From Escherichia coli (GTDB taxonomy: Bacteria; Pseudomonadota; Gammaproteobacteria; Enterobacterales; Enterobacteriaceae), in NCBI RefSeq assembly GCF_003790525.1, contig NZ_CP033635.1: a DNA stretch of 64,000 nucleotides; one strand, given 5' to 3'. Both the position numbers and the translations under genes were made by a program. Every line of letters starts with the position of its first letter. Within the stretch, counting starts at the first letter, position 1. This document shows, in pieces, positions 3,476 to 37,288 of the stretch. The notes under the pieces were generated by a model. The model did no database searches and was not told where the DNA came from. It saw nothing but the letters and a program-made list of their open reading frames with translations.

Positions 3476-3498
3476 AAAAGGTTGGCGTTACGTGCCAT
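3476..3498 (-). promoter_or_regulatory. candidate MarA/SoxS/Rob box in tolC promoter region
   Basis: Minus-strand sequence ATGGCACGTAACGCCAACCTTTTG fits the marbox consensus AYnGCACnnWnnRYYAAAY; tolC is a known mar/sox regulon member (from memory). Confidence 0.35.
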
Positions 3499-8069: not shown

Positions 8070-10211
8070 TCAAAATTCCATTTTCACCGTGAATTGCACT
8101 TCACGAGGATCGCCAATCTGGTTGCCCAGATTATTTGTGGCGATGGAAGAGGTGTAATACGTTTTATCAAACAGGTTTTTGACGTTTAATTGCAGTGTGA
8201 CCGGATACTGCAATTTCATTTTGTATGCGGCGAAGGCATCGGCAACGAAATAGCCTGGCAGATAATAGTCAGCCCCATTGGTTGCCGAACGACGGCTTAC
8301 GCCATGTCCACCACCGCCAAACGTCAGTGTGTTATTGCCAGGCATGTTATGAATGTCATAAGTCAGGAATAGCGAACCGGTATGACGAGGAACATTCGGC
8401 AATGGTTTCCCTGCATAATCAGGATCCTCCAGAACCTTAGCATCGGTATAGCCGTAGCTGGCAATGATATTAATGTTTTCAGTTAATGCTCCCGCAAGGT
8501 CGACTTCTACCCCTCTTGAACGAACACGGCCTGCCGTTTTGGCAATGGTTTCATCACCAACACTTTCGGTATACAACACATTACGTTTATGGATATCAAA
8601 CAGCGCAATATCTGCGGTGATACCATCGAATAGCTCGAATTTTGCCCCGACTTCGTAAGCATTAGATGATTCCGGTGGAAGATCGCCAATGTAGCTGGCA
8701 ATTGACGACTGCGGCATAAATGTTTGCGAATAATTGGCAAATAAGGATACCGATGGCGTCAGTTTGTAGACTAACCCCAGTTTGGGAGTCCATTGTTCAT
8801 CGCGGCTGTCAGTATTGACATTAAAAGGACGGCCTTTACCCGCATACTGCGTGTAATACTGATAGCGGATCCCGGCGACGGCAATCCAGTTATCGGTCAG
8901 ATAGAGTGCGTCCTGTGCATACGCTGAGTAGCTCTCCTGTTTGATCGTCTGATCACTGTCCGACGCCGAAACCGTTGTACATTTGCTGGTATTACCATAA
9001 ACAGGGTTGTAGATATTGAAATCTTTAGCTTTTTTACAGCGAATCATATCTGTACGCAGAAGATCATAATATTCATATGACACCCCACCCAGAATCTCAT
9101 TATAGAATCCGGCAATATCAACATTCCCTTGCAGATCCGCACGAGTAGCATGCATACGCTGGGTAGATCCCTGAGTTGCATCAACACGCCGTGTCAGTGT
9201 TCCTGTCGTTGCATCATACGCGGTAACACGCGCCTGATTATCGCTGTATTTATCCTGGCTGTAGCTGTAATCAAAGCGCGCTGTCCACTGGCTATTGAGA
9301 TGATATTCTGCGTTGAGTTGCGCCAGATCGGACTTTCCATCTGTAATATTAAACGGTTCGTCAAAACGTATTTTTCGATCAACGTTTACGGGCTGTTTCG
9401 TCGTAAGGTCGAAAATCGTTCCACGATCGAACGGAGTTTTATAGTCCCGATGGGAATAGAGCATAGTTACTGTTGCATTATCACCAAACCAGGTGAGTGA
9501 CGGGGCAATAAATGTACTGCGCTCTTTACCGAAGTTTCGCCAGTAATCTTCATCCTGCACTTCCCCGGTAAGGCGATACGCCAGCTGAGTGCCTTCAATG
9601 GGACCTGTGATATCAAGTTGCCCAGTGCCGCCACCAAAACTGGAGGAGGTGGCTGAAACCGAACCATGGAATGTTTTTTCCGGGCGCTTGGTCACGACGT
9701 TAATCAGTCCACCAGGATCGAGAATGCCATACAGCGTGGAGGCCGGACCTTTTAGCACTTCCACACGTTCTGTGGCGGCGTTGAAACTGCGAGGAAGTAC
9801 AGTTCGCAGGCCGTTGGTCATGATGGAGCCATCCCGGTTAGCACCAAACCCACGACGTACAAAGGCGTCCTGAGTTCCGCCTAATGTATTGGTCTGTACC
9901 ACGTTACTGACGTTATAAAGCGCTTCATCCAGCGTCGTCGCATTCTGATTTTCCAGAACCTGATCGCTAACAGTATTGACCACCTGCGGGATATCCAGCA
10001 TCGGCATATCGGTTAATGTCGCCGTGGAAGTGCTCAGAGGTTGATAACCATCGGTTGCCTCAGTTGCGGTATTTGCATCTGCTGTAACAGTGATTGTTTC
10101 GCCATCTTTGGTCGTTACAGAGTCTGTTGCATGAATCATCGGTGCCGCAAAAAGCAGTGAAAAGAGCGCCCGACCTTTGAGTCCTGAGAATGAAGGTGTG
10201 AACATAGCCAT
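8070..10211 (-). CDS. TonB-dependent siderophore receptor (Fit-like outer membrane receptor)
   Basis: 713 aa ORF; signal peptide, TonB-box-like ETITVTA near N-terminus, C-terminal ...TVKMEF with terminal Phe typical of beta-barrel OMPs; organisation resembles the E. coli Fit system as I recall it. Confidence 0.85.
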   Translation of the reverse strand: MAMFTPSFSGLKGRALFSLLFAAPMIHATDSVTTKDGETITVTADANTATEATDGYQPLSTSTATLTDMPMLDIPQVVNTVSDQVLENQNATTLDEALYNVSNVVQTNTLGGTQDAFVRRGFGANRDGSIMTNGLRTVLPRSFNAATERVEVLKGPASTLYGILDPGGLINVVTKRPEKTFHGSVSATSSSFGGGTGQLDITGPIEGTQLAYRLTGEVQDEDYWRNFGKERSTFIAPSLTWFGDNATVTMLYSHRDYKTPFDRGTIFDLTTKQPVNVDRKIRFDEPFNITDGKSDLAQLNAEYHLNSQWTARFDYSYSQDKYSDNQARVTAYDATTGTLTRRVDATQGSTQRMHATRADLQGNVDIAGFYNEILGGVSYEYYDLLRTDMIRCKKAKDFNIYNPVYGNTSKCTTVSASDSDQTIKQESYSAYAQDALYLTDNWIAVAGIRYQYYTQYAGKGRPFNVNTDSRDEQWTPKLGLVYKLTPSVSLFANYSQTFMPQSSIASYIGDLPPESSNAYEVGAKFELFDGITADIALFDIHKRNVLYTESVGDETIAKTAGRVRSRGVEVDLAGALTENINIIASYGYTDAKVLEDPDYAGKPLPNVPRHTGSLFLTYDIHNMPGNNTLTFGGGGHGVSRRSATNGADYYLPGYFVADAFAAYKMKLQYPVTLQLNVKNLFDKTYYTSSIATNNLGNQIGDPREVQFTVKMEF

Positions 10212-10308
10212 TTAGTCTGTTATCCCAAAAACTCGCGGATTGTCGCGAGTGAAAATTGTTTCTTATTGCTCACTAAGCACTATCCGTTTGTTATTTCGCC
10301 ATCGGATA

Positions 10309-10330
10309 TGTAATTGAGAATCATTCAATC
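10309..10330. promoter_or_regulatory. candidate Fur box in divergent receptor/ABC operon control region
   Basis: TAATTGAGAATCATTCAATC resembles Fur consensus GATAATGATAATCATTATC; a second AATGAGAAAT-like element lies about 25 bp downstream; sits in an AT-rich 373 bp intergenic. Confidence 0.45.
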
Positions 10331-10584
10331 ACGCAGTAATGTAGTAGTAAATGAGAAATAACAAAAAATTGCTACATGTGTTTTTATGAAAAGTTTATAC
10401 AATTTGATTGCTTTTAATTTATTGATATTTAATGGTTTTGTTTTTATGTGCAAAAATATTTTACCTGTTATTTACCTTGTTTTTGTGTGGCTTTTAACTG
10501 CTTGACTACTACATTTTGTGGCGTCAAACTCTCAAAGGAGAATGAGTTTTATTTTTGTTTGTCTTTGATTAAGTTGGCGTACAC

Positions 10585-11394
10585 GTGGCACATAACGCAA
10601 AAGGGCAGGGGCTGATCCTCGACAATGTTTCTGCCGGGTATCACAAGAAAATCATTGTTGATGGTGTTTCTTTCTCCGTTCCCACAGAAAAAATGACCGT
10701 TCTGGTTGGGGCAAACGGCTGTGGAAAGTCGACGCTGCTCAGCACCATTGCTCGTATCTTGCAACCCATGGGCGGTTCGATATTGCTGGATGGTAAAGCG
10801 ATTCACGAGCAACCAACGAAAGCGTTATCCCGTAGACTTGGGATCTTGCCGCAGTCGCCATTATTGCCGGAGGGCTTAACCGTTTATGAACTGGTGTCGC
10901 GTGGGCGTTTTCCCTGGCAGAATTTCATTCGTCAATGGAGCGACGCCGATGAGCTGGCGGTAGAAGAGGCCCTGAAATTAACGGGTACGCAGGAGTTTGC
11001 ACATTTACCTGTTGAAAAACTCTCTGGTGGGCAGCGCCAGCGTTGCTGGATTGCGATGGTGTTGGCGCAAAAGACGCCTTATATCCTGCTGGATGAACCC
11101 ACAACCTGGCTTGATTTACGTTATCAGGTTGAAATTCTTGAGTTATTACATGATTTAACGCGTCATCACGGGCGTACAGTCGTCGTGGTGTTGCATGATC
11201 TGAATTTTGCCGTCAATTATGGCGATACGTTGATATTTTTACGCCAGGGGAAAGTGGTGCGTGTGTTGAATGAGGGGGAGCATTGCACGCCTGAGCTGGT
11301 AAAAGCGGTCTTTGACGTTGATGTTCACGCATCAATAAATCCTCTGACGGGAAAGCCGTTCTTCATGCCGTTTCGTGGTGTAGAAAAAGTATGA
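10585..11394 (+). CDS. iron-siderophore ABC transporter ATP-binding protein
   Basis: 269 aa from GTG at 10585 (exact start uncertain); Walker A GANGCGKST, ABC signature LSGGQRQR, Walker B ILLDEPTTWLD. Confidence 0.85.
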   Translation: MAHNAKGQGLILDNVSAGYHKKIIVDGVSFSVPTEKMTVLVGANGCGKSTLLSTIARILQPMGGSILLDGKAIHEQPTKALSRRLGILPQSPLLPEGLTVYELVSRGRFPWQNFIRQWSDADELAVEEALKLTGTQEFAHLPVEKLSGGQRQRCWIAMVLAQKTPYILLDEPTTWLDLRYQVEILELLHDLTRHHGRTVVVVLHDLNFAVNYGDTLIFLRQGKVVRVLNEGEHCTPELVKAVFDVDVHASINPLTGKPFFMPFRGVEKV

Positions 11395-12374
11395 TGCGCA
11401 CAGGGCTGGTTACTGTAATTTTCCTCGCCTTACTGCTGGTGGGATGCGTGGTATATCCAGGGATTGGTGCCCGATTTATTGCACCACAAACGGTGTTGCA
11501 GGCATTTCTTCATTTTGATCCGCAAAACTTCGATCACAACGTAATTGTAAGACTCCGTTTGCCGCGTTTAGCGGCAGCATTGCTTACCGGTGCTTCTCTT
11601 GGAGTTGCTGGTGCTTTGTTGCAGGCTGTCATTCGTAACCCATTGGGGGAGCCACATATTTTAGGCTTAAATGCCGGAGCCGCTCTTGCTGTCGTTGCTG
11701 CCAGTGCGCTTGGGCTGGCCTTTCCGGTTGGACGCCCACTGCTGGCATCTACGGGCGGCGCGTTATTGTTCCTGTTGATATTGCTGCTTTCCTCCGCAGG
11801 GCGTTCAGGGTTAACGCCAATGAAAGTTACTTTATGCGGCGTGGCGCTATCGGCGTTCGTGTCCTCAATAACGGCTGCAATCCTGATTCTTGACGAACAA
11901 ACACTGCTGGCGATGCGGACATGGCTAGCAGGTGATTTAGCGGGGCAGGATTGGGCGACGCTGGGTACGTCCGCCTGGTTTTCTCTGGGGGGATTTGTGT
12001 TAGCCCTTTACCTTGCACCCTCCCTTAACATGTTGGCACTGGGCGATCGCATGGCGCAGGGGCTGGGCGTCTCTGTATTCCGCACGCGAACATTCACCCT
12101 GCTTGCGATCGCGTTGCTCTGTGGCGCAGCCGTATCGATTGCTGGCCCCATTGGTTTTGTCGGCCTGCTAGTACCGCAGATTGTCCGGCGTCTGGTATCA
12201 GCGGATCTGCGCGTTCTGCTCCCTCTTTCAGCTTGTGTCGGCGCACTTTTGTTATTACTGGCAGATATTATTGCCCGTACGCTTTTCACACCCCATGAGT
12301 TAGCGACCGGTGTCATGACGGCGTTAGTTGGTGCGCCTGTTTTTGTCATTATGGCGACGAGGATGTTCAAATGA
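11391..12374 (+). CDS. iron-siderophore ABC transporter permease (FecCD family)
   Basis: 327 aa polytopic hydrophobic ORF; 4 nt start/stop overlap with upstream ATPase gene. Confidence 0.85.
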   Translation: MMRTGLVTVIFLALLLVGCVVYPGIGARFIAPQTVLQAFLHFDPQNFDHNVIVRLRLPRLAAALLTGASLGVAGALLQAVIRNPLGEPHILGLNAGAALAVVAASALGLAFPVGRPLLASTGGALLFLLILLLSSAGRSGLTPMKVTLCGVALSAFVSSITAAILILDEQTLLAMRTWLAGDLAGQDWATLGTSAWFSLGGFVLALYLAPSLNMLALGDRMAQGLGVSVFRTRTFTLLAIALLCGAAVSIAGPIGFVGLLVPQIVRRLVSADLRVLLPLSACVGALLLLLADIIARTLFTPHELATGVMTALVGAPVFVIMATRMFK

Positions 12375-13420
12375 GTCGGATAATGAACGTCGGGCTACGC
12401 CCACTACGTGTTGGTAAGTTTTCGACACTGGTACGCCCTAAAAATCTGCTGTTGCTTGGTGGGCTGTTCCTGCTTGCGGTTGGAATACTGATATTCGGTC
12501 TGATGCAGGGTTCTTTCTCTGTTCCGGCATCGGAAGTAGGACGAGCGTTGTTTGCTCCAGAAAACGTAAGCACAGACGCACGTTATATTGTGCAGGATAT
12601 TCGCTTGCCGAGAGTCATCATGGCATTGCTATGCGGGGCCATGTTAGGTATGGCAGGGGCCGCAATGCAATCCATTGCACGTAACGGCCTTGCCGATCCT
12701 GGTTTAATCGGCGTCAAAGAAGGATGTAGCGTGGCTGTGCTGTGGCTGATTTTCCAGTTTCCAATGCTGGGAATGTTCTGGCGTCCAGTGGCTGGTCTTG
12801 CTGGTGGCCTGTTGGTGGCTTTAATCGTGATTTTTTGTGCGCGCGATATTTCCCGCCCGCGATTTGTTCTGATTGGTATTGGTGTTTCCTGGTTTTTCGC
12901 CGCCGGTATCGGTGTATTTATGACCACTGCAGATGTTCGAGATGTACAAACTGCATTGATGTGGTTATCGGGAAGCCTGCATGCAGCTAACTGGATGTTA
13001 GTCGCTATTTCAGCCTGTTGGATGTTGCCAGCCGCTCTTTTATTGCTGTTCACCGCCAGGACGGCGGATATCGCTCTGCTTGGTCATCAGGTTGCAACCG
13101 GGTTAGGGGTGAATAGTTCTCGTCTGGCGTTGTTACGTGTCGCTGCACCCATAATCCTGACAGCCGTCTGCGTTTCGTGTGTTGGTAACATCGGTTTTGT
13201 CGGATTGATAGCACCCCATATATCACGTTTTATTCTACGTGGCGGGCAGACGACATTACTGCTGGGGAGCGCGGTATCGGGGGCGTTGTTAGTTATTCTG
13301 GCGGATAGCATTGGTCGTTTGGCTTTTTTGCCTTTGCAACTGCCTGCCGGAATCATTATCTCACTGATTGGTGGACCATTTTTTTTGCTACTGCTCTGGC
13401 AGCGCAGGAACAGTTTTTAA
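12371..13420 (+). CDS. iron-siderophore ABC transporter permease (FecCD family), second subunit
   Basis: 349 aa hydrophobic ORF paralogous to the preceding permease; 4 nt overlap with it. Confidence 0.85.
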   Translation: MSRIMNVGLRPLRVGKFSTLVRPKNLLLLGGLFLLAVGILIFGLMQGSFSVPASEVGRALFAPENVSTDARYIVQDIRLPRVIMALLCGAMLGMAGAAMQSIARNGLADPGLIGVKEGCSVAVLWLIFQFPMLGMFWRPVAGLAGGLLVALIVIFCARDISRPRFVLIGIGVSWFFAAGIGVFMTTADVRDVQTALMWLSGSLHAANWMLVAISACWMLPAALLLLFTARTADIALLGHQVATGLGVNSSRLALLRVAAPIILTAVCVSCVGNIGFVGLIAPHISRFILRGGQTTLLLGSAVSGALLVILADSIGRLAFLPLQLPAGIIISLIGGPFFLLLLWQRRNSF

Positions 13421-13430
13421 CGGGAGTTAT

Positions 13431-14378
13431 ATGCGTTTATTTTTTTCTCTGCTGATACTGTTGTCATTTTTTTCCCGTGCAACAGAACCTGTTCAGGTAT
13501 TTACTGATGATTTAGGGCGCAAAGTCACTGTTCCTGCTCATCCAAAGAGAATTGTCTCTTTACACGATCTTGATATCACTATTCCTCTGATTGAGCTCGG
13601 TGTACCTCCTGTCGCCAGCCACGGGCGAACTCGGCCTGACGGTAGCCATTTCATTCGATCTGGCGCGTTATTGACAGGTGTCGACTTTGATAATTCATCG
13701 ATCGCCTTTATTGGTACCGCTGATATTGATATTGAAGCGATTGTGGCGGCAAAGCCTGACCTGATCATCACAGAACCGACCCGTAATACGCCCATTGAAC
13801 AACTTGAAAAAATTGCGCCCACGGTGAGCATTGATCATCTCAAAGGGGGCGCGCCAGAAATCTATCGCAAGCTGGCAGAACTTACAGGAACGCAGTCGCA
13901 GCTGGCGATACTTGAACGCCGCTATCAGGCACAAATCAATGCGCTGAAGGCGACGCTGGACAGCCAAAAAATAACGGTATCGGTGATTCAGGCAAACCAG
14001 GGAAAAATTAATGTGATGCATAGCTATCATTCGCTGGGGCGGGTATTACGCGATGCTGGTTTTCGTTTTCCGCCGCTGATTGAGAGCATTCCTGAAGGTG
14101 GGCGAATGGATGTGAGCGCGGAGCGTTTACCTGAACTGGATGCCGATTTTGTTTTTGCAACCTGGCGCGGTGACACCGGTGGTAAACCTCAGGATGAGCT
14201 GGCAGCAATGGAAAAAGTCATGCCGGGATGGTGTCAGTTTCTGACTGCCTGTCGTTCCGGGCGTTATGTGCTGATTTCTCGTGAAGAGGCGATTTCTAAC
14301 TCCTTTGCATCTCTGGGGCTGATGGCTGCGCAGATACAATCACAAATTGCAGGGCGACCTCTACCGGAGGATAAATGA
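13431..14378 (+). CDS. periplasmic siderophore-binding protein (ABC substrate-binding, class III)
   Basis: ORF 13368-14378 trimmed to ATG at 13431 preceded by GGGAG; signal peptide MRLFFSLLILLSFFSRA. Confidence 0.8.
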   Translation: MRLFFSLLILLSFFSRATEPVQVFTDDLGRKVTVPAHPKRIVSLHDLDITIPLIELGVPPVASHGRTRPDGSHFIRSGALLTGVDFDNSSIAFIGTADIDIEAIVAAKPDLIITEPTRNTPIEQLEKIAPTVSIDHLKGGAPEIYRKLAELTGTQSQLAILERRYQAQINALKATLDSQKITVSVIQANQGKINVMHSYHSLGRVLRDAGFRFPPLIESIPEGGRMDVSAERLPELDADFVFATWRGDTGGKPQDELAAMEKVMPGWCQFLTACRSGRYVLISREEAISNSFASLGLMAAQIQSQIAGRPLPEDK

Positions 14379-15262
14379 TCCAGAAAGATAAAGCGCGGGT
14401 TGATATTTTTGGTGAGCGTTTTCGCACTCGCGCGAGTCAGTTAACGCCTGGGTTAAGAGTTGTCGCCAGCTACATTAATGAGCATCGTGAAGTGGTACTC
14501 GAGCAAACGGCGATGGAAATTGCGGCCACGTTGAACACTTCCGATGCCACAGTTATCAGGGCTATACAGGCCCTGGGGTTTGCCGGGCTGCGTGATCTGA
14601 AACGCACTCTGGAACAGTGGCTTGGTCCAGCCCTTAGTTCCAGCGAAAAGATGTCTACGACGGTGAGTAACTTGACGAGCGATGTTAACACCGCAATCGA
14701 CTTTGTTCTTGAAGGGCATTTGTATACCTGTAATGTCCTGTCAGAGCCTGAAAACCGCCACGCGCTTGCGCAAGCTGTAGCGTTGTTGGTGCAGGCACGG
14801 CAAGTCGCTATTTTTGGCATTGGCGCTTCGGGTATCCTGGCGGACTATACCGCACGACTATTCAACCGCATAGGTTTGCCTGCCACGGCACTAAACCGTA
14901 CGGGTATTGGCCTTGCCGAGCAACTGATCGCGCTTCAACGTGGCGATGTTCTGATCATGATGGCGCAAAAATCTGCGCACCGGGAAGGGCTGACAACGCT
15001 TCGTGAGGCGAGGCGGCTGGGGATCCCTGTTATTTTGCTGACAAACGCGCTGGATTCACGTTTTAGCAAAGACGCCAGTATCGTGATTCATGTTCCGCGC
15101 GGGGATGAAAAAGGGAAAACGCCGCTACATGGTACGGTATTGTTGTGTCTGGAAATGATTGTCTGGTCGGTAGCTTCCGCAGTGCCGCAGCGTGCGGTTA
15201 AAACCATTAAGCGAATTAACGATTTCCATCGAGGACTGAAAACGGGAAGAAAGAATGGCTAA
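14375..15262 (+). CDS. RpiR/MurR family transcriptional regulator (HTH plus SIS domain)
   Basis: 295 aa; N-terminal HTH region and C-terminal SIS-like sugar-phosphate binding region (IFGIGASG...); 4 nt overlap with binding-protein gene. Confidence 0.8.
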   Translation: MIQKDKARVDIFGERFRTRASQLTPGLRVVASYINEHREVVLEQTAMEIAATLNTSDATVIRAIQALGFAGLRDLKRTLEQWLGPALSSSEKMSTTVSNLTSDVNTAIDFVLEGHLYTCNVLSEPENRHALAQAVALLVQARQVAIFGIGASGILADYTARLFNRIGLPATALNRTGIGLAEQLIALQRGDVLIMMAQKSAHREGLTTLREARRLGIPVILLTNALDSRFSKDASIVIHVPRGDEKGKTPLHGTVLLCLEMIVWSVASAVPQRAVKTIKRINDFHRGLKTGRKNG

Positions 15263-15306: not shown

Positions 15307-15621
15307 TTAAATCCCCGGTTGCAGGATGCGGATATTCATCTCCAGCACATCGCCTTTTACGGCCTCGCTGTACGCTTTCATGTGCGGGGTCTGCAAGTGC
15401 GCTTCAAGATGCGCGATGCTTTCCCACTGCTCAATCATCACGATAGAATCCGGTGCCATAGACTGGAAACTCACGCCAGCAGCGCAATCCACCATTGGCG
15501 CATAGCCGTGGCAACCTTCTTCTTTCAGTACGGTTGGAACGATTTTAGCAAACTGATCCAACACTGCCTGACGGTGATGTTGACCAGGACGAGTACGGAT
15601 TTCTGCGATTACTGTAATCAT
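15307..15621 (-). CDS. ygiN: quinol monooxygenase YgiN
   Basis: 104 aa ORF MITVIAEIRTRPGQHHRQAVLDQF... recognised as YgiN (ABM domain). Confidence 0.92.
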   Translation of the reverse strand: MITVIAEIRTRPGQHHRQAVLDQFAKIVPTVLKEEGCHGYAPMVDCAAGVSFQSMAPDSIVMIEQWESIAHLEAHLQTPHMKAYSEAVKGDVLEMNIRILQPGI

Positions 15622-15651: not shown

Positions 15652-16233
15652 TTAACCAAAAATTTCCACAAGATGCTTGCGATATTCTTCAGTATAGCGG
15701 GGAACATCAGGCATTTTTATCACGTCATTAGCGATAAATGTCGGCAGCGGTTCCATGCCAAGGAATTGGTTTGCTTTATGAAACGGCAGGTACACACCGT
15801 CAACACCAACGCCGTGGAAGAACTGATCTTTTTCGGTGAAGGCTTCCATTGGTGCGTTCCAGGTCAGAGAAAGCATATATTTTTTGCCCTGTACCAGGCC
15901 GCCGGAGCCGTATTTTTTCGACGGATCTTTGCGGGTACGACCATCGCTGGCATACAGCGTCCCGTGACCTTCGGTGAATACATCATCAATGTATTTTTTC
16001 ACTGTCCACGGCGCGCCCATCCACCAGCCTGGCATCTGCCAGATCACCACATCAGCCCAGAGAAAGTTTTGTACTTCCGCTTTGACATCGTAGTCGCTGT
16101 CGGCGCGAACGATGCGGACATCATGCCCGAGGTCGCGCAGTGTGCCATCCGCGACTTCGGTCAGGGTGTCGTTCAGTTGACCATTGGAGTGGGCGAATTT
16201 TTTCGCGCCGTTGATAATCAGGATGTTGCTCAT
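15652..16233 (-). CDS. mdaB: NADPH:quinone oxidoreductase MdaB
   Basis: 193 aa ORF MSNILIINGAKKFAHSNGQLNDTL... recognised as MdaB; operon with ygiN. Confidence 0.92.
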   Translation of the reverse strand: MSNILIINGAKKFAHSNGQLNDTLTEVADGTLRDLGHDVRIVRADSDYDVKAEVQNFLWADVVIWQMPGWWMGAPWTVKKYIDDVFTEGHGTLYASDGRTRKDPSKKYGSGGLVQGKKYMLSLTWNAPMEAFTEKDQFFHGVGVDGVYLPFHKANQFLGMEPLPTFIANDVIKMPDVPRYTEEYRKHLVEIFG

Positions 16234-16342
16234 TTTTTAACCTTAAGGTGAGACGTTTGCCGACTATAGTACGTCACAGAGCGGTACGGTGAAATTAGCA
16301 AAATGTGCAAAGTCTTTTGCGAATTTAGCAAAAGTCTTACCC

Positions 16343-17692
16343 TTACCAGCTTACTTTCGCCTCAAATCCACCTTGTTCCGCATTCCCAAACTCAACATTC
16401 ATGTCATGCAGCTTGGCGATTCGCTGGACAATTGAAAGCCCAAGTCCACTGCCGGTAGCGGTTTGTCCGGGTGGGCGATAGAAGCGTTCGCCAATTCTCG
16501 CCAGTGCCTCTGGCGTCACACCGGGGCCGTTATCCTTCACGATGAAATTATCGGCATTCAGCGTGACGTCCACCACGCAGCCCTGTGGACTGTAGCGCAC
16601 GGCGTTATCCAGAAGGTTTCGTACCAACAAACTTAGCAACAGCGGTTGTCCGGTGCGTTTGATGCCGTGGGCATTGAGTGTCAGTCGCACGTCAATTTTC
16701 GCCTGCTGCGCCGTGTGGTAAATATCCATCACCGACGATTGCAGGAGATCTTCAAGCGGGATCTCCGCGACGTCCTGAAGGTTATCCAGTGAGTCCAGCC
16801 GCGATAGCGTGAGCAGTTGATCAACCAGACGAGTAGCGCGATCGATCCCGGAATGTAATTGGAGCAGCGCTTTTTTCCGCGCCTGCGGATCATCGTCAGA
16901 GAGCTGAGCAACTTCGGTTTGCACTTTCAGCGCCGTTAACGGGCTACGAAGTTCGTGAGCTGCGTCGGAGGTAAAGCGTCGTTCACGAACCATCATCGCA
17001 TGTGTGCGGGCGAACAGTTGATTCAACGACTCAACCAGTGGGCGCACTTCGCTGGGTACGCCCGTCGCGTTTAGTGGTTTTTCCGAGTCTGGGTCACGCA
17101 TACGTAGTGCCAGCGCCAGTTTGTTCAGCGGCGCGAGTTCACGACCCAGTAGTACCATCATGATGATTAACATAATCGGCAGTGCGACCAGCCACGGGAT
17201 CAATTGTCCGGCAACAATCGCCAGCGCCATGTCTTCACGGTATTCCCATTCCTGACCAACAACAATGCGATATTTGCCATCAGGTGAGGTCATCCAGACA
17301 AAACGCCATTGATCTTTATCGCCCACCAGTTGCCCGTCAGCAAAACCTTCTCGTTGATAGCTATAAGGAATATCTTCTCCATTATCGCCATCGTTAAGGA
17401 CCATTCTGCCGTCGTGGGTAAAGATGGCAAAGGTCAGCGCATCGTCATCAACATGACCGTGTTTTAATTTATTTGGCGTCTGTGCCATGCGATCCGCCGC
17501 GTTGATTTCGTTGAGATCGAGCGTACTTAACCGTTTGGCAAACAGCATCAGTTGGGTGTCGAACAACTCATCGACGTTATCCGTTGTTTGTTTCCAGGCG
17601 ACAAAGCTGGAAAGCAGCCAGGTCACCGAGGCCAGAATTAAAAAGATTAGCGTTAGCCTGACTCGCAGACTAAGACGTTGGGTAAATTTCAT
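16343..17692 (-). CDS. qseC: two-component sensor histidine kinase QseC
   Basis: 449 aa; two TM segments, HAMP, H-box ([10 protein letters not shown]), HATPase_c motifs; 4 nt overlap with qseB. Confidence 0.93.
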
Positions 17693-18348
17693 TTCTCACC
17701 TAATGTGTAGCCAATACCATGAACGGTACGAATAAAATCACTGCCGAGTTTGCGTCGCAGATGATGCACATGCACTTCAACGGCATTACTGGTGACCTCT
17801 TCGTCCCAGGTATACAGTTTCTCTTCAATCAGTTTGCGCGGCAGTACCCGACCAGCGTTACGCATCAGTAATTCCAGCAGGGCAAATTCTTTTGGCTTCA
17901 GCGTTAAGGGTTCGCCAGCCAGCGTGGCGATACGTTTGCCGGGGTCGAGCATGACGTTGCCGTGGCGCAGCTCGTTGCTGGCCTGGCCGTTGGTTCGGCG
18001 CATCAGAGCTTCCAGCCTGGCGGCGACTTCTATCAACGCAAAAGGTTTACACAGATAATCGTCAGCTCCCAGACGCAGCCCTTCTACACGTTCCGCCAGC
18101 GCATCGCGCGCGGTCAGGATCAAAACCGGCTCACGCTGACCTTTTTCTCGCCATTCGCGCAAAATATCGCGACCATCCATGCCCGGTAAGGTTAAATCCA
18201 GGATCACCGCATCATAAGGTGCGCTATATAGCGCCTCTTTTCCCTGACGACCTTGTGTAAACCAGTCGACGCTAAAACCCATTTTACTAAGGCCCGTTTT
18301 GATGCCGTCGCCAATCAGCATGTCATCTTCTATCAGTAAAATTCGCAT
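17689..18348 (-). CDS. qseB: two-component response regulator QseB (OmpR family)
   Basis: 219 aa [16 protein letters not shown]... receiver plus winged-helix output domain. Confidence 0.93.
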
Positions 18349-18944: not shown

Positions 18945-19427
18945 ATGACAAACCTGACACTGGATGTAAATATTATCGATTTCCCATCAATCCCTGTGGC
19001 GATGTTGCCGCACCGCTGTAGCCCTGAGTTGCTCAACTACAGTGTGGCGAAATTTATCATGTGGCGTAAAGAGACGGGGCTTTCTCCTGTTAACCAAAGC
19101 CAGACTTTTGGCGTCGCCTGGGACGACCCTGCCACCACCGCACCAGAAGCGTTTCGCTTTGATATCTGCGGCAGCGTTAGCGAACCGATCCCCGATAATC
19201 GTTATGGCGTAAGTAATGGTGAACTTACCGGTGGACGTTATGCTGTGGCCCGCCATGTTGGCGAGCTGGACGATATTTCACACACGATATGGGGCATCAT
19301 TCGCCACTGGCTTCCGGCAAGCGGCGAAAAAATGCGCAAGGCCCCGATCCTGTTTCACTACACCAATCTTGCCGAAGGGATGACAGAGCAGCGACTGGAA
19401 ACAGATGTTTATGTGCCGTTGGCGTGA
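18945..19427 (+). CDS. ygiV: GyrI-like effector-binding domain protein YgiV
   Basis: 160 aa ORF recognised as YgiV. Confidence 0.88.
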   Translation: MTNLTLDVNIIDFPSIPVAMLPHRCSPELLNYSVAKFIMWRKETGLSPVNQSQTFGVAWDDPATTAPEAFRFDICGSVSEPIPDNRYGVSNGELTGGRYAVARHVGELDDISHTIWGIIRHWLPASGEKMRKAPILFHYTNLAEGMTEQRLETDVYVPLA

Positions 19428-19535
19428 TGAAGAATCTTTACCGGAGTGTGAGCCAAATCACTCGCGATAAGTTTGAGCGAACAATGCCACAGGCGTATTG
19501 TTGTTGGGCTTATAATTTCTCCGGTAAGGAATACC

Positions 19536-21143
19536 ATGTATACGCGAAATTTATTATGGCTGGTCAGCCTGGTAAGTGCGGCTCCTCTCTACGCTGCTGA
19601 CGTTCCCGCCAACACACCGCTCGCCCCGCAACAAGTCTTTCGTTACAACAATCATAGCGACCCAGGCACGCTCGACCCGCAAAAGGTGGAGGAGAATACT
19701 GCCGCGCAGATTGTGCTGGATCTGTTTGAAGGTCTGGTATGGATGGACGGTGAAGGCCAGGTGCAGCCCGCTCAGGCTGAACGCTGGGAGATACTGGACG
19801 GCGGCAAGCGCTATATTTTCCATCTGCGTAGCGGTTTGCAGTGGTCAGACGGTCAGCCTCTGACGGCAGAGGATTTTGTCCTCGGCTGGCAGCGCGCGGT
19901 TGACCCGAAAACGGCAAGCCCTTTTGCTGGCTATCTGGCACAGGCGCACATTAACAATGCCGCGGCTATTGTTGCGGGTAAAGCAGATGTTACATCGCTG
20001 GGTGTCAAAGCGACGGATGATCGTACTCTTGAAGTTACGCTTGAGCAGCCAGTTCCTTGGTTCACGACGATGCTCGCCTGGCCGACGCTGTTCCCGGTTC
20101 CTCATCATGTCATCGCTAAACATGGCGATAGCTGGAGTAAGCCAGAGAACATGGTTTACAACGGTGCCTTTGTGCTTGATCAGTGGGTAGTTAACGAAAA
20201 GATTACTGCACGCAAAAATCCAAAGTACCGCGATGCGCAACATACAGTATTGCAACAGGTTGAGTATCTGGCGCTGGATAATTCGGTCACCGGCTATAAC
20301 CGCTATCGCGCGGGAGAGGTCGATCTCACCTGGGTTCCGGCGCAGCAAATTCCCGCCATTGAAAAATCACTGCCTGGCGAGCTACGAATTATTCCGCGTC
20401 TGAACAGCGAATATTACAACTTCAACCTTGAGAAACCGCCATTTAACGATGTGCGGGTGCGTCGGGCGCTATATCTTACGGTTGATCGACAGCTTATTGC
20501 GCAAAAGGTACTGGGGTTGAGAACGCCCGCAACTACGCTGACGCCGCCAGAGGTAAAAGGCTTTAGCGCGACGACGTTCGATGAACTGCAAAAGCCGCTG
20601 AGTGAGCGCGTCGCGATGGCAAAAGCCTTGTTGAAACAGGCGGGATACGACGCCTCTCATCCGCTTCGCTTTGAGCTGTTCTACAACAAGTACGATCTGC
20701 ATGAAAAGACCGCGATAGCGTTGTCTTCCGAATGGAAAAAATGGCTGGGTGCACAGGTGACGCTGCGCACAATGGAGTGGAAAACTTATCTTGATGCCCG
20801 ACGAGCCGGTGATTTCATGTTGTCTCGGCAGTCGTGGGATGCGACGTACAATGATGCCTCCACCTTTCTGAACACGCTTAAGAGCGATAGCGAGGAAAAT
20901 GTCGGCCACTGGAAAAACGCGCAGTATGACGCCTTACTAAACCAGGCGGCACAAACGGCTGATGCAACAAAGCGTAATGCGTTGTATCAGCAGGCAGAAG
21001 TGATCATCAACCAGCAGGCACCGCTCATTCCTGTCTATTATCAGCCGTTAATCAAACTGCTTAAACCCTACGTTGGCGGTTTTCCGCTGCATAATCCCCA
21101 GGATTATGTCTACAGCAAAGAGTTGTATATCAAGGCACATTGA
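19536..21143 (+). CDS. ygiS: periplasmic oligopeptide-binding protein (ABC substrate-binding family 5) YgiS
   Basis: ORF 19473-21143 trimmed to ATG at 19536 preceded by AAGGA; 535 aa with signal peptide MYTRNLLWLVSLVSAAPLYAA. Confidence 0.9.
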   Translation: MYTRNLLWLVSLVSAAPLYAADVPANTPLAPQQVFRYNNHSDPGTLDPQKVEENTAAQIVLDLFEGLVWMDGEGQVQPAQAERWEILDGGKRYIFHLRSGLQWSDGQPLTAEDFVLGWQRAVDPKTASPFAGYLAQAHINNAAAIVAGKADVTSLGVKATDDRTLEVTLEQPVPWFTTMLAWPTLFPVPHHVIAKHGDSWSKPENMVYNGAFVLDQWVVNEKITARKNPKYRDAQHTVLQQVEYLALDNSVTGYNRYRAGEVDLTWVPAQQIPAIEKSLPGELRIIPRLNSEYYNFNLEKPPFNDVRVRRALYLTVDRQLIAQKVLGLRTPATTLTPPEVKGFSATTFDELQKPLSERVAMAKALLKQAGYDASHPLRFELFYNKYDLHEKTAIALSSEWKKWLGAQVTLRTMEWKTYLDARRAGDFMLSRQSWDATYNDASTFLNTLKSDSEENVGHWKNAQYDALLNQAAQTADATKRNALYQQAEVIINQQAPLIPVYYQPLIKLLKPYVGGFPLHNPQDYVYSKELYIKAH

Positions 21144-36361: not shown

Positions 36362-37288
36362 TCATTGCTTTAATCTGGCGGCGGTTTTTGCCTCAATCTG
36401 CTTAAGTAGGCTGCCGCTATTCGGGCGGATAAAATCAGCGATTTCCCACTTACCTTCGCGCCGCTGTAAAACCAGTTCTTGCTCTTCGTTGTTGCCATTG
36501 CTCAGCGTAAAACGAACATGAATGCGGGCGGAATCGGCGGTTTTCTCCAGGACACGGATTTCATCAACGCGTGAAAATAGCGACTCTTCGCCAAAACAGA
36601 TCGGATTGTCGTAAATAAATTGCCGTTCTATTTGCATATCTTCATCGGGATTGTTGGTAGTCTTGAAGGTGGTTTTATAGAAGGCATTGACCGCCTGGCG
36701 GTAAGAGTCGGAAACCACCCACGTCCACGGCCAGCTATAATCAGCAATATGTTCAAAGAGTTCGGCAACAAAGGCTTCCGGCTGTTCTTTTTGCAACGAA
36801 GCTATAGCGGCCAGCGTTTTTTCATTCTCGCTATTTACCGCTTGTAAGACGCTGCCATGATTGCTGACAATATCGTCAATGACCCAACGACCATTTTCCG
36901 CCACCATTTTCAGTGTCTGCGTGGTCTTTTCTTTATCGTCTTTAAAGATACGAAAGCGCACAACGGCATCGGCATGATCGGCGTCAGGTTGGGTTATCGC
37001 TACGCTTTCTAACACCAGATCGCCAAAATCCTGACAATCACAAACCGGATCATAATCCAGCCAGCCAATATTGCCCGGTAGTGTAAGATTGTCGTTCAGG
37101 GTAAGCGCCTGTTGAATACGCGCAGAAGTTATCGCTCGCTCTCCGGTTTCACCAAAATAAGGCGTACTGGCATCTGATTTATAGTTCTGATAAATCTGCC
37201 GGACTGTTTGTTCTACGGTCTGTGAAGAAGGCTGCGCCTGTACGGTAAAACTTGCCAGGGCTGCTAAAAACAGAAGTATTATTTTCAT
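36362..37288 (-). CDS. yqhG: DUF3828 family protein YqhG
   Basis: 308 aa with signal peptide MKIILLFLAALASFTVQA. Confidence 0.85.
   Translation of the reverse strand: MKIILLFLAALASFTVQAQPSSQTVEQTVRQIYQNYKSDASTPYFGETGERAITSARIQQALTLNDNLTLPGNIGWLDYDPVCDCQDFGDLVLESVAITQPDADHADAVVRFRIFKDDKEKTTQTLKMVAENGRWVIDDIVSNHGSVLQAVNSENEKTLAAIASLQKEQPEAFVAELFEHIADYSWPWTWVVSDSYRQAVNAFYKTTFKTTNNPDEDMQIERQFIYDNPICFGEESLFSRVDEIRVLEKTADSARIHVRFTLSNGNNEEQELVLQRREGKWEIADFIRPNSGSLLKQIEAKTAARLKQ

Follow-up and report, generated by a model that had tools for sequence, protein, structure and literature searches.

The qseC-mdaB spacer of an Escherichia coli strain without ygiZ is probably the ancestral-type, unoccupied form of an insertion site

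The 109 bp between qseC and mdaB in the E. coli DNA analysed here, a stretch of 64 kb termed the window, contain no gene and very probably represent an insertion site of the chromosome in its unoccupied, ancestral-type form. In about 85% of E. coli, 5 bp beside the qseC stop codon are replaced by AT-rich DNA which was probably acquired horizontally. This DNA is either a full cassette of hcp, a gene for a putative 236-aa effector and ygiZ (DUF2645, the presumed immunity gene), or a reduced form consisting of ygiZ and a hairpin. The strain examined here, like O157:H7, has neither the full cassette nor the ygiZ-only insert.

Results

The qseC-mdaB interval in the window

From the minus-strand coordinates of mdaB and qseC (Table 1) the spacer is exactly 109 bp long. 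Beyond qseB the window continues with ygiW, ygiV and ygiS on the plus strand. A preliminary description of this DNA had noted the 109 bp between the mdaB start (16233) and the qseC stop (16343) and had seen no ygiZ-like ORF there; coordinates, ORF list and tblastn agreed with both statements. No ORF of about 110 aa matching PF10840 (DUF2645) was present between qseC and mdaB in the window. As positive controls, the YgiZ proteins of K-12 and EC958 matched PF10840. In a tblastn search of the 64-kb window with YgiZ from K-12 and EC958, the cassette Hcp and the 236-aa protein, no homolog was detected (best E = 0.38). The mechanical ORFs which touch the spacer (33 aa, 16230-16331, minus; 48 aa, 16289-16435, plus; 51 aa, 16303-16458, plus) lie for the most part over qseC or the promoter of mdaB. 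E. coli CFSAN061771 is collinear with the window (zero indels and 154 mismatches over 31.8 kb), and the RefSeq annotation of that genome has no gene in the qseC-mdaB spacer. The contiguous junction is common to 824 complete E. coli genomes, thus the absence of ygiZ is no accident of assembly. The empty site is real and ordinary, a routine accessory-gene difference which is already visible in RefSeq annotation.

Table 1. Coordinates of the locus and of the elements discussed; positions are those of the window, except for the last two lines, which refer to the respective loci.
Feature	Position	Strand	Basis or location
ygiN	15307-15621	minus	
mdaB, NADPH:quinone oxidoreductase, 193 aa	15652-16233	minus	ORF list and RefSeq annotation of collinear genome
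qseC-mdaB spacer, 109 bp, probable unoccupied ygiZ/hcp cassette site, no gene	16234-16342		
Shine-Dalgarno sequence	16241-16243		77-sequence alignment
-10-like hexamer TACTAT (TAnnAT conserved across species)	16266-16271	minus	
Deeply conserved block ATT(A/T)TTGC-N7-GCAAAAGACTTTGCACATTTTGCT(A/C)ATTT, presumed mdaB regulatory region	16288-16335	minus	(nearly) invariant columns, 77 sequences
Putative marbox-like element TTTGCACATTTTGCTAATT, 2 mismatches to AYNGCACNNWNNRYYAAAY, overlaps -35 of putative mdaB promoter	16293-16311	minus	
TACCC on plus strand (GGGTA in gene sense), 5 bp directly after qseC stop	16338-16342		junction alignment
qseC, sensor histidine kinase, 449 aa	16343-17692, including stop 16343-16345	minus	ORF list and RefSeq annotation of collinear genome
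qseB	17689-18348	minus	
hcp-effector-DUF2645 cassette, Citrobacter werkmanii	L020 2226-3754		between qseC stop and conserved mdaB block
hcp-effector-DUF2645 cassette, Pseudocitrobacter MAG	L079 2123-3646		between qseC stop and conserved mdaB block

Junctions and structure of the occupied alleles

In K-12 MG1655 ygiZ (b3027, 110 aa, a DUF2645 inner-membrane protein) is located on the opposite strand inside a 696-bp qseC-mdaB interval. The preliminary description had placed a ygiZ gene of about 110 aa between qseC and mdaB in K-12, which is correct. The reservation made there, that K-12 might have an equally short interval with ygiZ elsewhere, can thus be dropped. K-12 and the window share flanking genes and gene order, and the mdaB-proximal 103 bp and the qseC stop codon are common to both. 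On alignment of the intervals, the check which had been suggested, the window has the 5 bp TACCC, whereas K-12 has 592 bp of AT-rich DNA comprising ygiZ, its promoter region and a hairpin. In EC958 (ST131) the interval harbors three genes, hcp (159 aa), a gene for a 236-aa hypothetical protein and ygiZ, and the same 5 bp are replaced by 1,723 bp. On the mdaB side the sequence is common to all alleles as far as ...TTTAGCAAAAGTCT (window position 16337); on the qseC side they coincide once more from TTACCAGC onwards, which is the stop codon (16343). Insertion took place at the outer margin of the mdaB regulatory block and left both this block and qseC intact.

The K-12 and EC958 intervals match at about 94% over the first 177 bp and the last 388 bp, the latter comprising ygiZ and the hairpin. 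Where EC958 has 1,261 bp of hcp-effector DNA, K-12 has 131 unrelated bp. These features suggest that the K-12 type is the same insertion after an internal deletion, and the allele is best read as a reduced cassette in which ygiZ was kept. In K-12-type alleles a segment of 131-181 bp is located upstream of ygiZ; the evidence that it is a decayed 3' end of the effector gene is only suggestive. Local alignments of this segment to the effector 3' end were collinear in MS14384 and E. whittamii, not in K-12, and a single weak blastx match was obtained (E = 0.03). The alignments were not better than those of shuffled sequences, and a proof at the DNA level was therefore rejected.

The inserted DNA has a GC content of 33-35% compared to 51% for the flanks. 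According to published work (PMC3950696), BglJ-RcsB, which antagonizes silencing by H-NS, activates the promoter of ygiZ. Both properties fit with horizontally acquired DNA. The hairpin in the K-12 insert (-19.6 kcal/mol, z = -4.5) is located 8 nt after the qseC stop codon; it was not called by a consensus terminator scan.

Frequency of the three alleles in E. coli

The frequency of the alleles was determined in 5,426 complete E. coli genomes, 5,425 of which were matched by an 801-bp probe across the site. With a 120-bp probe centered on the junction the empty site was found to be contiguous in 824 genomes (15%), O157:H7 among them. The K-12 ygiZ gene was found in 4,600 genomes (85%), and the median number of places was one. 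The segment with hcp and the gene for the 236-aa protein was present in 1,262 genomes (23%), e.g. in ST131 EC958, and roughly 3,300 genomes remain for the ygiZ-only, K-12-type allele. Presence or absence of ygiZ between qseC and mdaB is a common polymorphism with three forms of the site. Of the two options offered in the preliminary description, a strain-variable small insertion is hence the right one.

The counts for the empty junction and for ygiZ anywhere in the genome are complementary (5,424/5,425). Thus, genomes with an empty site are generally without ygiZ altogether. Just 64 kb of the genome are visible here, and ygiZ might have been relocated or have diverged beyond recognition in this strain so that the gap is only apparent. 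However, this is very improbable considering the complementary counts, the single place of ygiZ in the median genome and the failure to find a match in the window.

Direction of change across Enterobacteriaceae

Next to E. coli, the site was surveyed across species by an MdaB scan with one genome per species, by which 80 Enterobacteriaceae loci were recovered. In 77 of them mdaB directly followed qseC at 102-110 bp after the stop codon, with one exception of 144 bp. Among these are E. albertii, representatives of two further Escherichia species, Salmonella, Citrobacter, Klebsiella, Enterobacter and Kluyvera. The window has the same ancestral arrangement, i.e. co-oriented genes, a spacer of 109 bp and the conserved TTGC-N7-GCAAAAGACTTTGCACATTTTGCT core.

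The remaining three loci are occupied. Only ygiZ is present in E. whittamii; the full cassette was found in Citrobacter werkmanii and in a MAG of Pseudocitrobacter, at exactly the same position (Table 1). Identities of the latter two to EC958 were 76 and 69% for Hcp, 73 and 67% for the effector and 64 and 44% for YgiZ, respectively. The flanks of both loci are native (QseC 78 and 68%). No integrase or terminal repeats were seen at these two cassette sites. The occurrence at the same site in three genera could mean that an old insertion was lost many times or that one precise site was targeted repeatedly. The divergence of the cassette proteins in C. werkmanii is about that of QseC, hence an old insertion with many losses could account for it.

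In gene sense the junction in the window reads TAA-GGGTA-AGACTTTTGC, that in E. albertii TAG-CGGTA-AGAC and that in Escherichia sp. MOD1-EC7003 GAGTA-AGAC. A deletion of the occupied allele via the TTAC microhomology would yield GTCTGATCTTACCAGC, whereas GTCTTACCCTTACCAGC is observed. The junction resembles that of E. albertii and is unlike the product of such a deletion, thus it is not a deletion scar. Together with the short spacers in 77 of 80 loci this argues that the short spacer is the ancestral type and that ygiZ is an insertion. Two refinements are hence to be made to the preliminary description: the short interval is the ancestral one, and ygiZ is inserted DNA, which survives as the final gene of a three-gene hcp-effector-ygiZ cassette and is no insertion on its own.

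An ancestral-type sequence is also compatible with an occupied ancestor, which could have been reconverted by scarless homologous recombination with an empty allele. Secondary loss of ygiZ or of the full cassette in this lineage, by precise deletion or, more plausibly, by such a homologous replacement, is the less favored history and we consider it rather unlikely. An occupied E. coli ancestor is plausible because about 85% of E. coli as well as E. whittamii carry ygiZ. The 801-bp flanks of the window are closer to those of the ygiZ-bearing MS14384 (98.2%) than to those of the empty O157:H7 (97.4%), which suggests mosaic histories, and the similar divergence of cassette and QseC between genera points in the same direction. 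Yet no remnant of cassette DNA was present in the window, and its junction matches that of E. albertii and of one other Escherichia species. The site in the window is therefore considered as an ancestral-type allele.

Contents of the 109-bp spacer

The spacer was aligned with those of 76 other species, i.e. 77 sequences in total. A deeply conserved block with nearly invariant columns is presumed to be the mdaB regulatory region (Table 1); it abuts the insertion point and is kept in all alleles. Within the block the marbox-like element is invariant across the 77 aligned sequences. As such, the marbox pattern with two mismatches was not enriched in the window (11 matches compared to 17.8 expected), and by itself such a match is no proof. 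In PMC2989944, with reference to Martin & Rosner 2002, mdaB is counted among the members of the mar regulon. A putative marbox-like element at the -35 region of mdaB is therefore backed by conservation and by the cited regulon membership. Of the columns at the -10-like hexamer, T87 is invariant, and G86, A88, A91 and T92 are at least 90% conserved in the 77 sequences; a strict consensus promoter scan did not call TACTAT. Taken together, the 109 bp would constitute the promoter region of mdaB-ygiN, composed of the conserved TTGC-N7-GCAAAAGACTTTGCAC... block, the marbox-like element, TACTAT and a Shine-Dalgarno sequence, and do not code for a protein. The best marbox match in the window (one mismatch, 3480-3498, minus strand) is located just upstream of tolC, a known target of MarA, SoxS and Rob, and constitutes an internal positive control.

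Could the spacer hide a functional small ORF or a structured RNA in replacement of ygiZ? The spacer is touched by mechanical ORFs of 33-51 aa and contains an imperfect inverted repeat, AGACTTTTGC-N7-GCAAAAGaCT. However, the folding energy of the spacer was no better than that of shuffled sequences (z = -0.08), and RNAalifold with the 77 sequences yielded six invariant pairs with zero compensatory changes, i.e. no structure supported by covariation. A consensus scan called neither a Rho-independent terminator nor a promoter in the spacer. A hidden RNA element or terminator was rejected on these grounds, and the entire proposition is hardly credible. The pattern of conservation is that of a sequence-specific promoter/operator block.

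The cassette genes

The EC958 Hcp is a full-length TssD/Hcp protein (PF05638, E = 3.5e-20; TIGR03344, E = 5.5e-59). Its identification with the published APEC Hcp2B was rejected because hcp2B is part of an hcp2B-vgrG2-xmtU/V operon in the T6SS2 cluster. hcp is immediately upstream of the effector gene in EC958, Pectobacterium, Serratia and Chania.

For the 236-aa protein no match was obtained in Pfam (E ≤ 0.1), NCBIfam (E ≤ 1) or PDB sequences. A fold search predicted a lytic-transglycosylase (lysozyme-like) fold from a model of only moderate confidence. No SLT-type model of Pfam was reached, and the likeness to GH23/SLT is at the level of fold and motifs only. The family consists of 34 clusters and was found exclusively in Enterobacterales (E. 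coli, Citrobacter, Pectobacterium, Erwinia, Serratia, Chania). Its alignment displays an invariant Glu82 in AWIE(S)GG, a TSxGS...Q segment and an RYNRG motif. These are reminiscent of E-S, GLMQ and AYNxG, which are motifs of the family-1 lytic transglycosylases.

In six genera and four genomic contexts a DUF2645 gene comes next after the effector gene; the two genes overlap or are no more than 10 bp apart. Tightly packed triads of hcp, a 237-240-aa protein gene and a DUF2645 gene were found in Pectobacterium between pagP and eamA, in Chania beside a transposase and in Serratia CP072744.1, a record of 75.6 kb with plasmid-type genes (locus L090, 3507-5058). With RepB-type and PLD-type genes near the triad the Serratia record looks like a plasmid. 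If so, the triad might have spread from genus to genus by way of such a plasmid.

YgiZ is predicted to have three hydrophobic helices. A word-indexed search with YgiZ did not extend beyond Escherichia, Shigella, Citrobacter and Salmonella. Truncated or extended variants (64-172 aa) make up many of the YgiZ clusters, particularly in Shigella, which suggests that ygiZ often occurs in a frameshifted or pseudogene form. No paper was found which links ygiZ, DUF2645 or the qseC-mdaB site to type VI secretion.

Discussion

Judged by its gene content, the cassette most likely is an orphan Hcp-dependent type VI module in which a peptidoglycan-cleaving effector would be paired with YgiZ as the immunity protein. 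The predicted fold and the conservation of the triad in six genera make the K-12 ygiZ look like an orphan T6SS immunity gene. In its full form the cassette is similar to orphan Hcp-effector-immunity modules of type VI secretion, e.g. those of glycoside-hydrolase effectors acting on peptidoglycan with their immunity proteins, such as Tse3/Tsi3 of P. aeruginosa (PDB 4luq). The cassette combines hcp with a gene for a protein of predicted lysozyme/lytic-transglycosylase fold and a small downstream gene, and the genes are tightly packed and mobile between contexts. It differs in its effector family, which has no sequence-level match to any described family. A further difference concerns YgiZ. The known immunity proteins against peptidoglycan-degrading T6SS effectors are soluble or lipoproteins in the periplasm, whereas YgiZ is predicted to be a three-helix membrane protein, which would be an unusual partner for a periplasmic glycosidase.

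That YgiZ (DUF2645) confers immunity to a previously undescribed, Hcp-linked effector family with a lytic-transglycosylase-like fold is, in our estimate, a proposal with even chances. According to this proposal the site would exist in armed, immune-only and naive forms. Strains without ygiZ, such as the one examined here and O157:H7, would be unprotected against that effector and specifically vulnerable to ExPEC lineages which bear the cassette, such as ST131. It would also point to a testable function for an orphan y-gene of K-12, namely immunity, as what is left of a T6SS cassette.

The K-12-type ygiZ, alone after loss of hcp and effector, is reminiscent of orphan immunity genes such as YqhG/Tai3 (DUF3828). 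The window retains yqhG but not ygiZ; for YgiZ it is the synteny which suggests an immunity role. yqhG in the window (36362-37288, minus strand) codes for two DUF3828 domains and its RefSeq name is 'YqhG/Tai3 family', therefore it is another T6SS-immunity-like orphan. Both yqhG and ygiZ are among ten loci activated by BglJ-RcsB (PMC3950696). This hints that the BglJ-RcsB regulon includes silenced orphan immunity genes.

The preB(qseC)-mdaB region of Salmonella Typhimurium has the same gene order, orientation and conserved core as the window, and the spacers show species-level differences outside the core. The Salmonella spacer is 106 bp, and mdaB-ygiN is a separate operon activated by PreA(QseB) which is not co-transcribed with preB (PMC2653508). 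A single preAB-mdaB-ygiN operon in Salmonella is thus ruled out. The arrangement in K-12 is the derived one, and the short spacer of the window, O157:H7 and Salmonella is the original. By itself the empty site matters little; qseC, mdaB and the regulatory block of mdaB are all unaffected. In occupied alleles AT-rich DNA, including the BglJ-RcsB-target promoter of ygiZ, and a strong hairpin come to lie directly between qseC and the QseB-responsive mdaB promoter. Consequently, studies of qseBC and mdaB in K-12 and in EHEC use different local architectures.

Other features of the window

A second strain-variable insertion is found a few kb from the ygiZ site. In K-12 the toxin-antitoxin pair mqsR-mqsA is located between ygiV and ygiS. 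In the window (19427-19536) ygiV is adjacent to ygiS and the pair is missing, as it is at the corresponding position in O157:H7, EC958 and MS14384. Between parE and ygiN, which are adjacent in K-12, the window carries an iron-uptake island (8070-15262) with genes for a TonB-dependent siderophore receptor, an ABC ATPase, two FecCD permeases, a substrate-binding protein and a MurR/RpiR regulator; presumably it resembles the 'fit' locus. Finally, a TRAP transporter small-permease gene (27383-27865, minus strand) has an in-frame TAA at codon 29, in agreement with RefSeq, where the gene of the collinear genome is flagged as a pseudogene ('internal stop').
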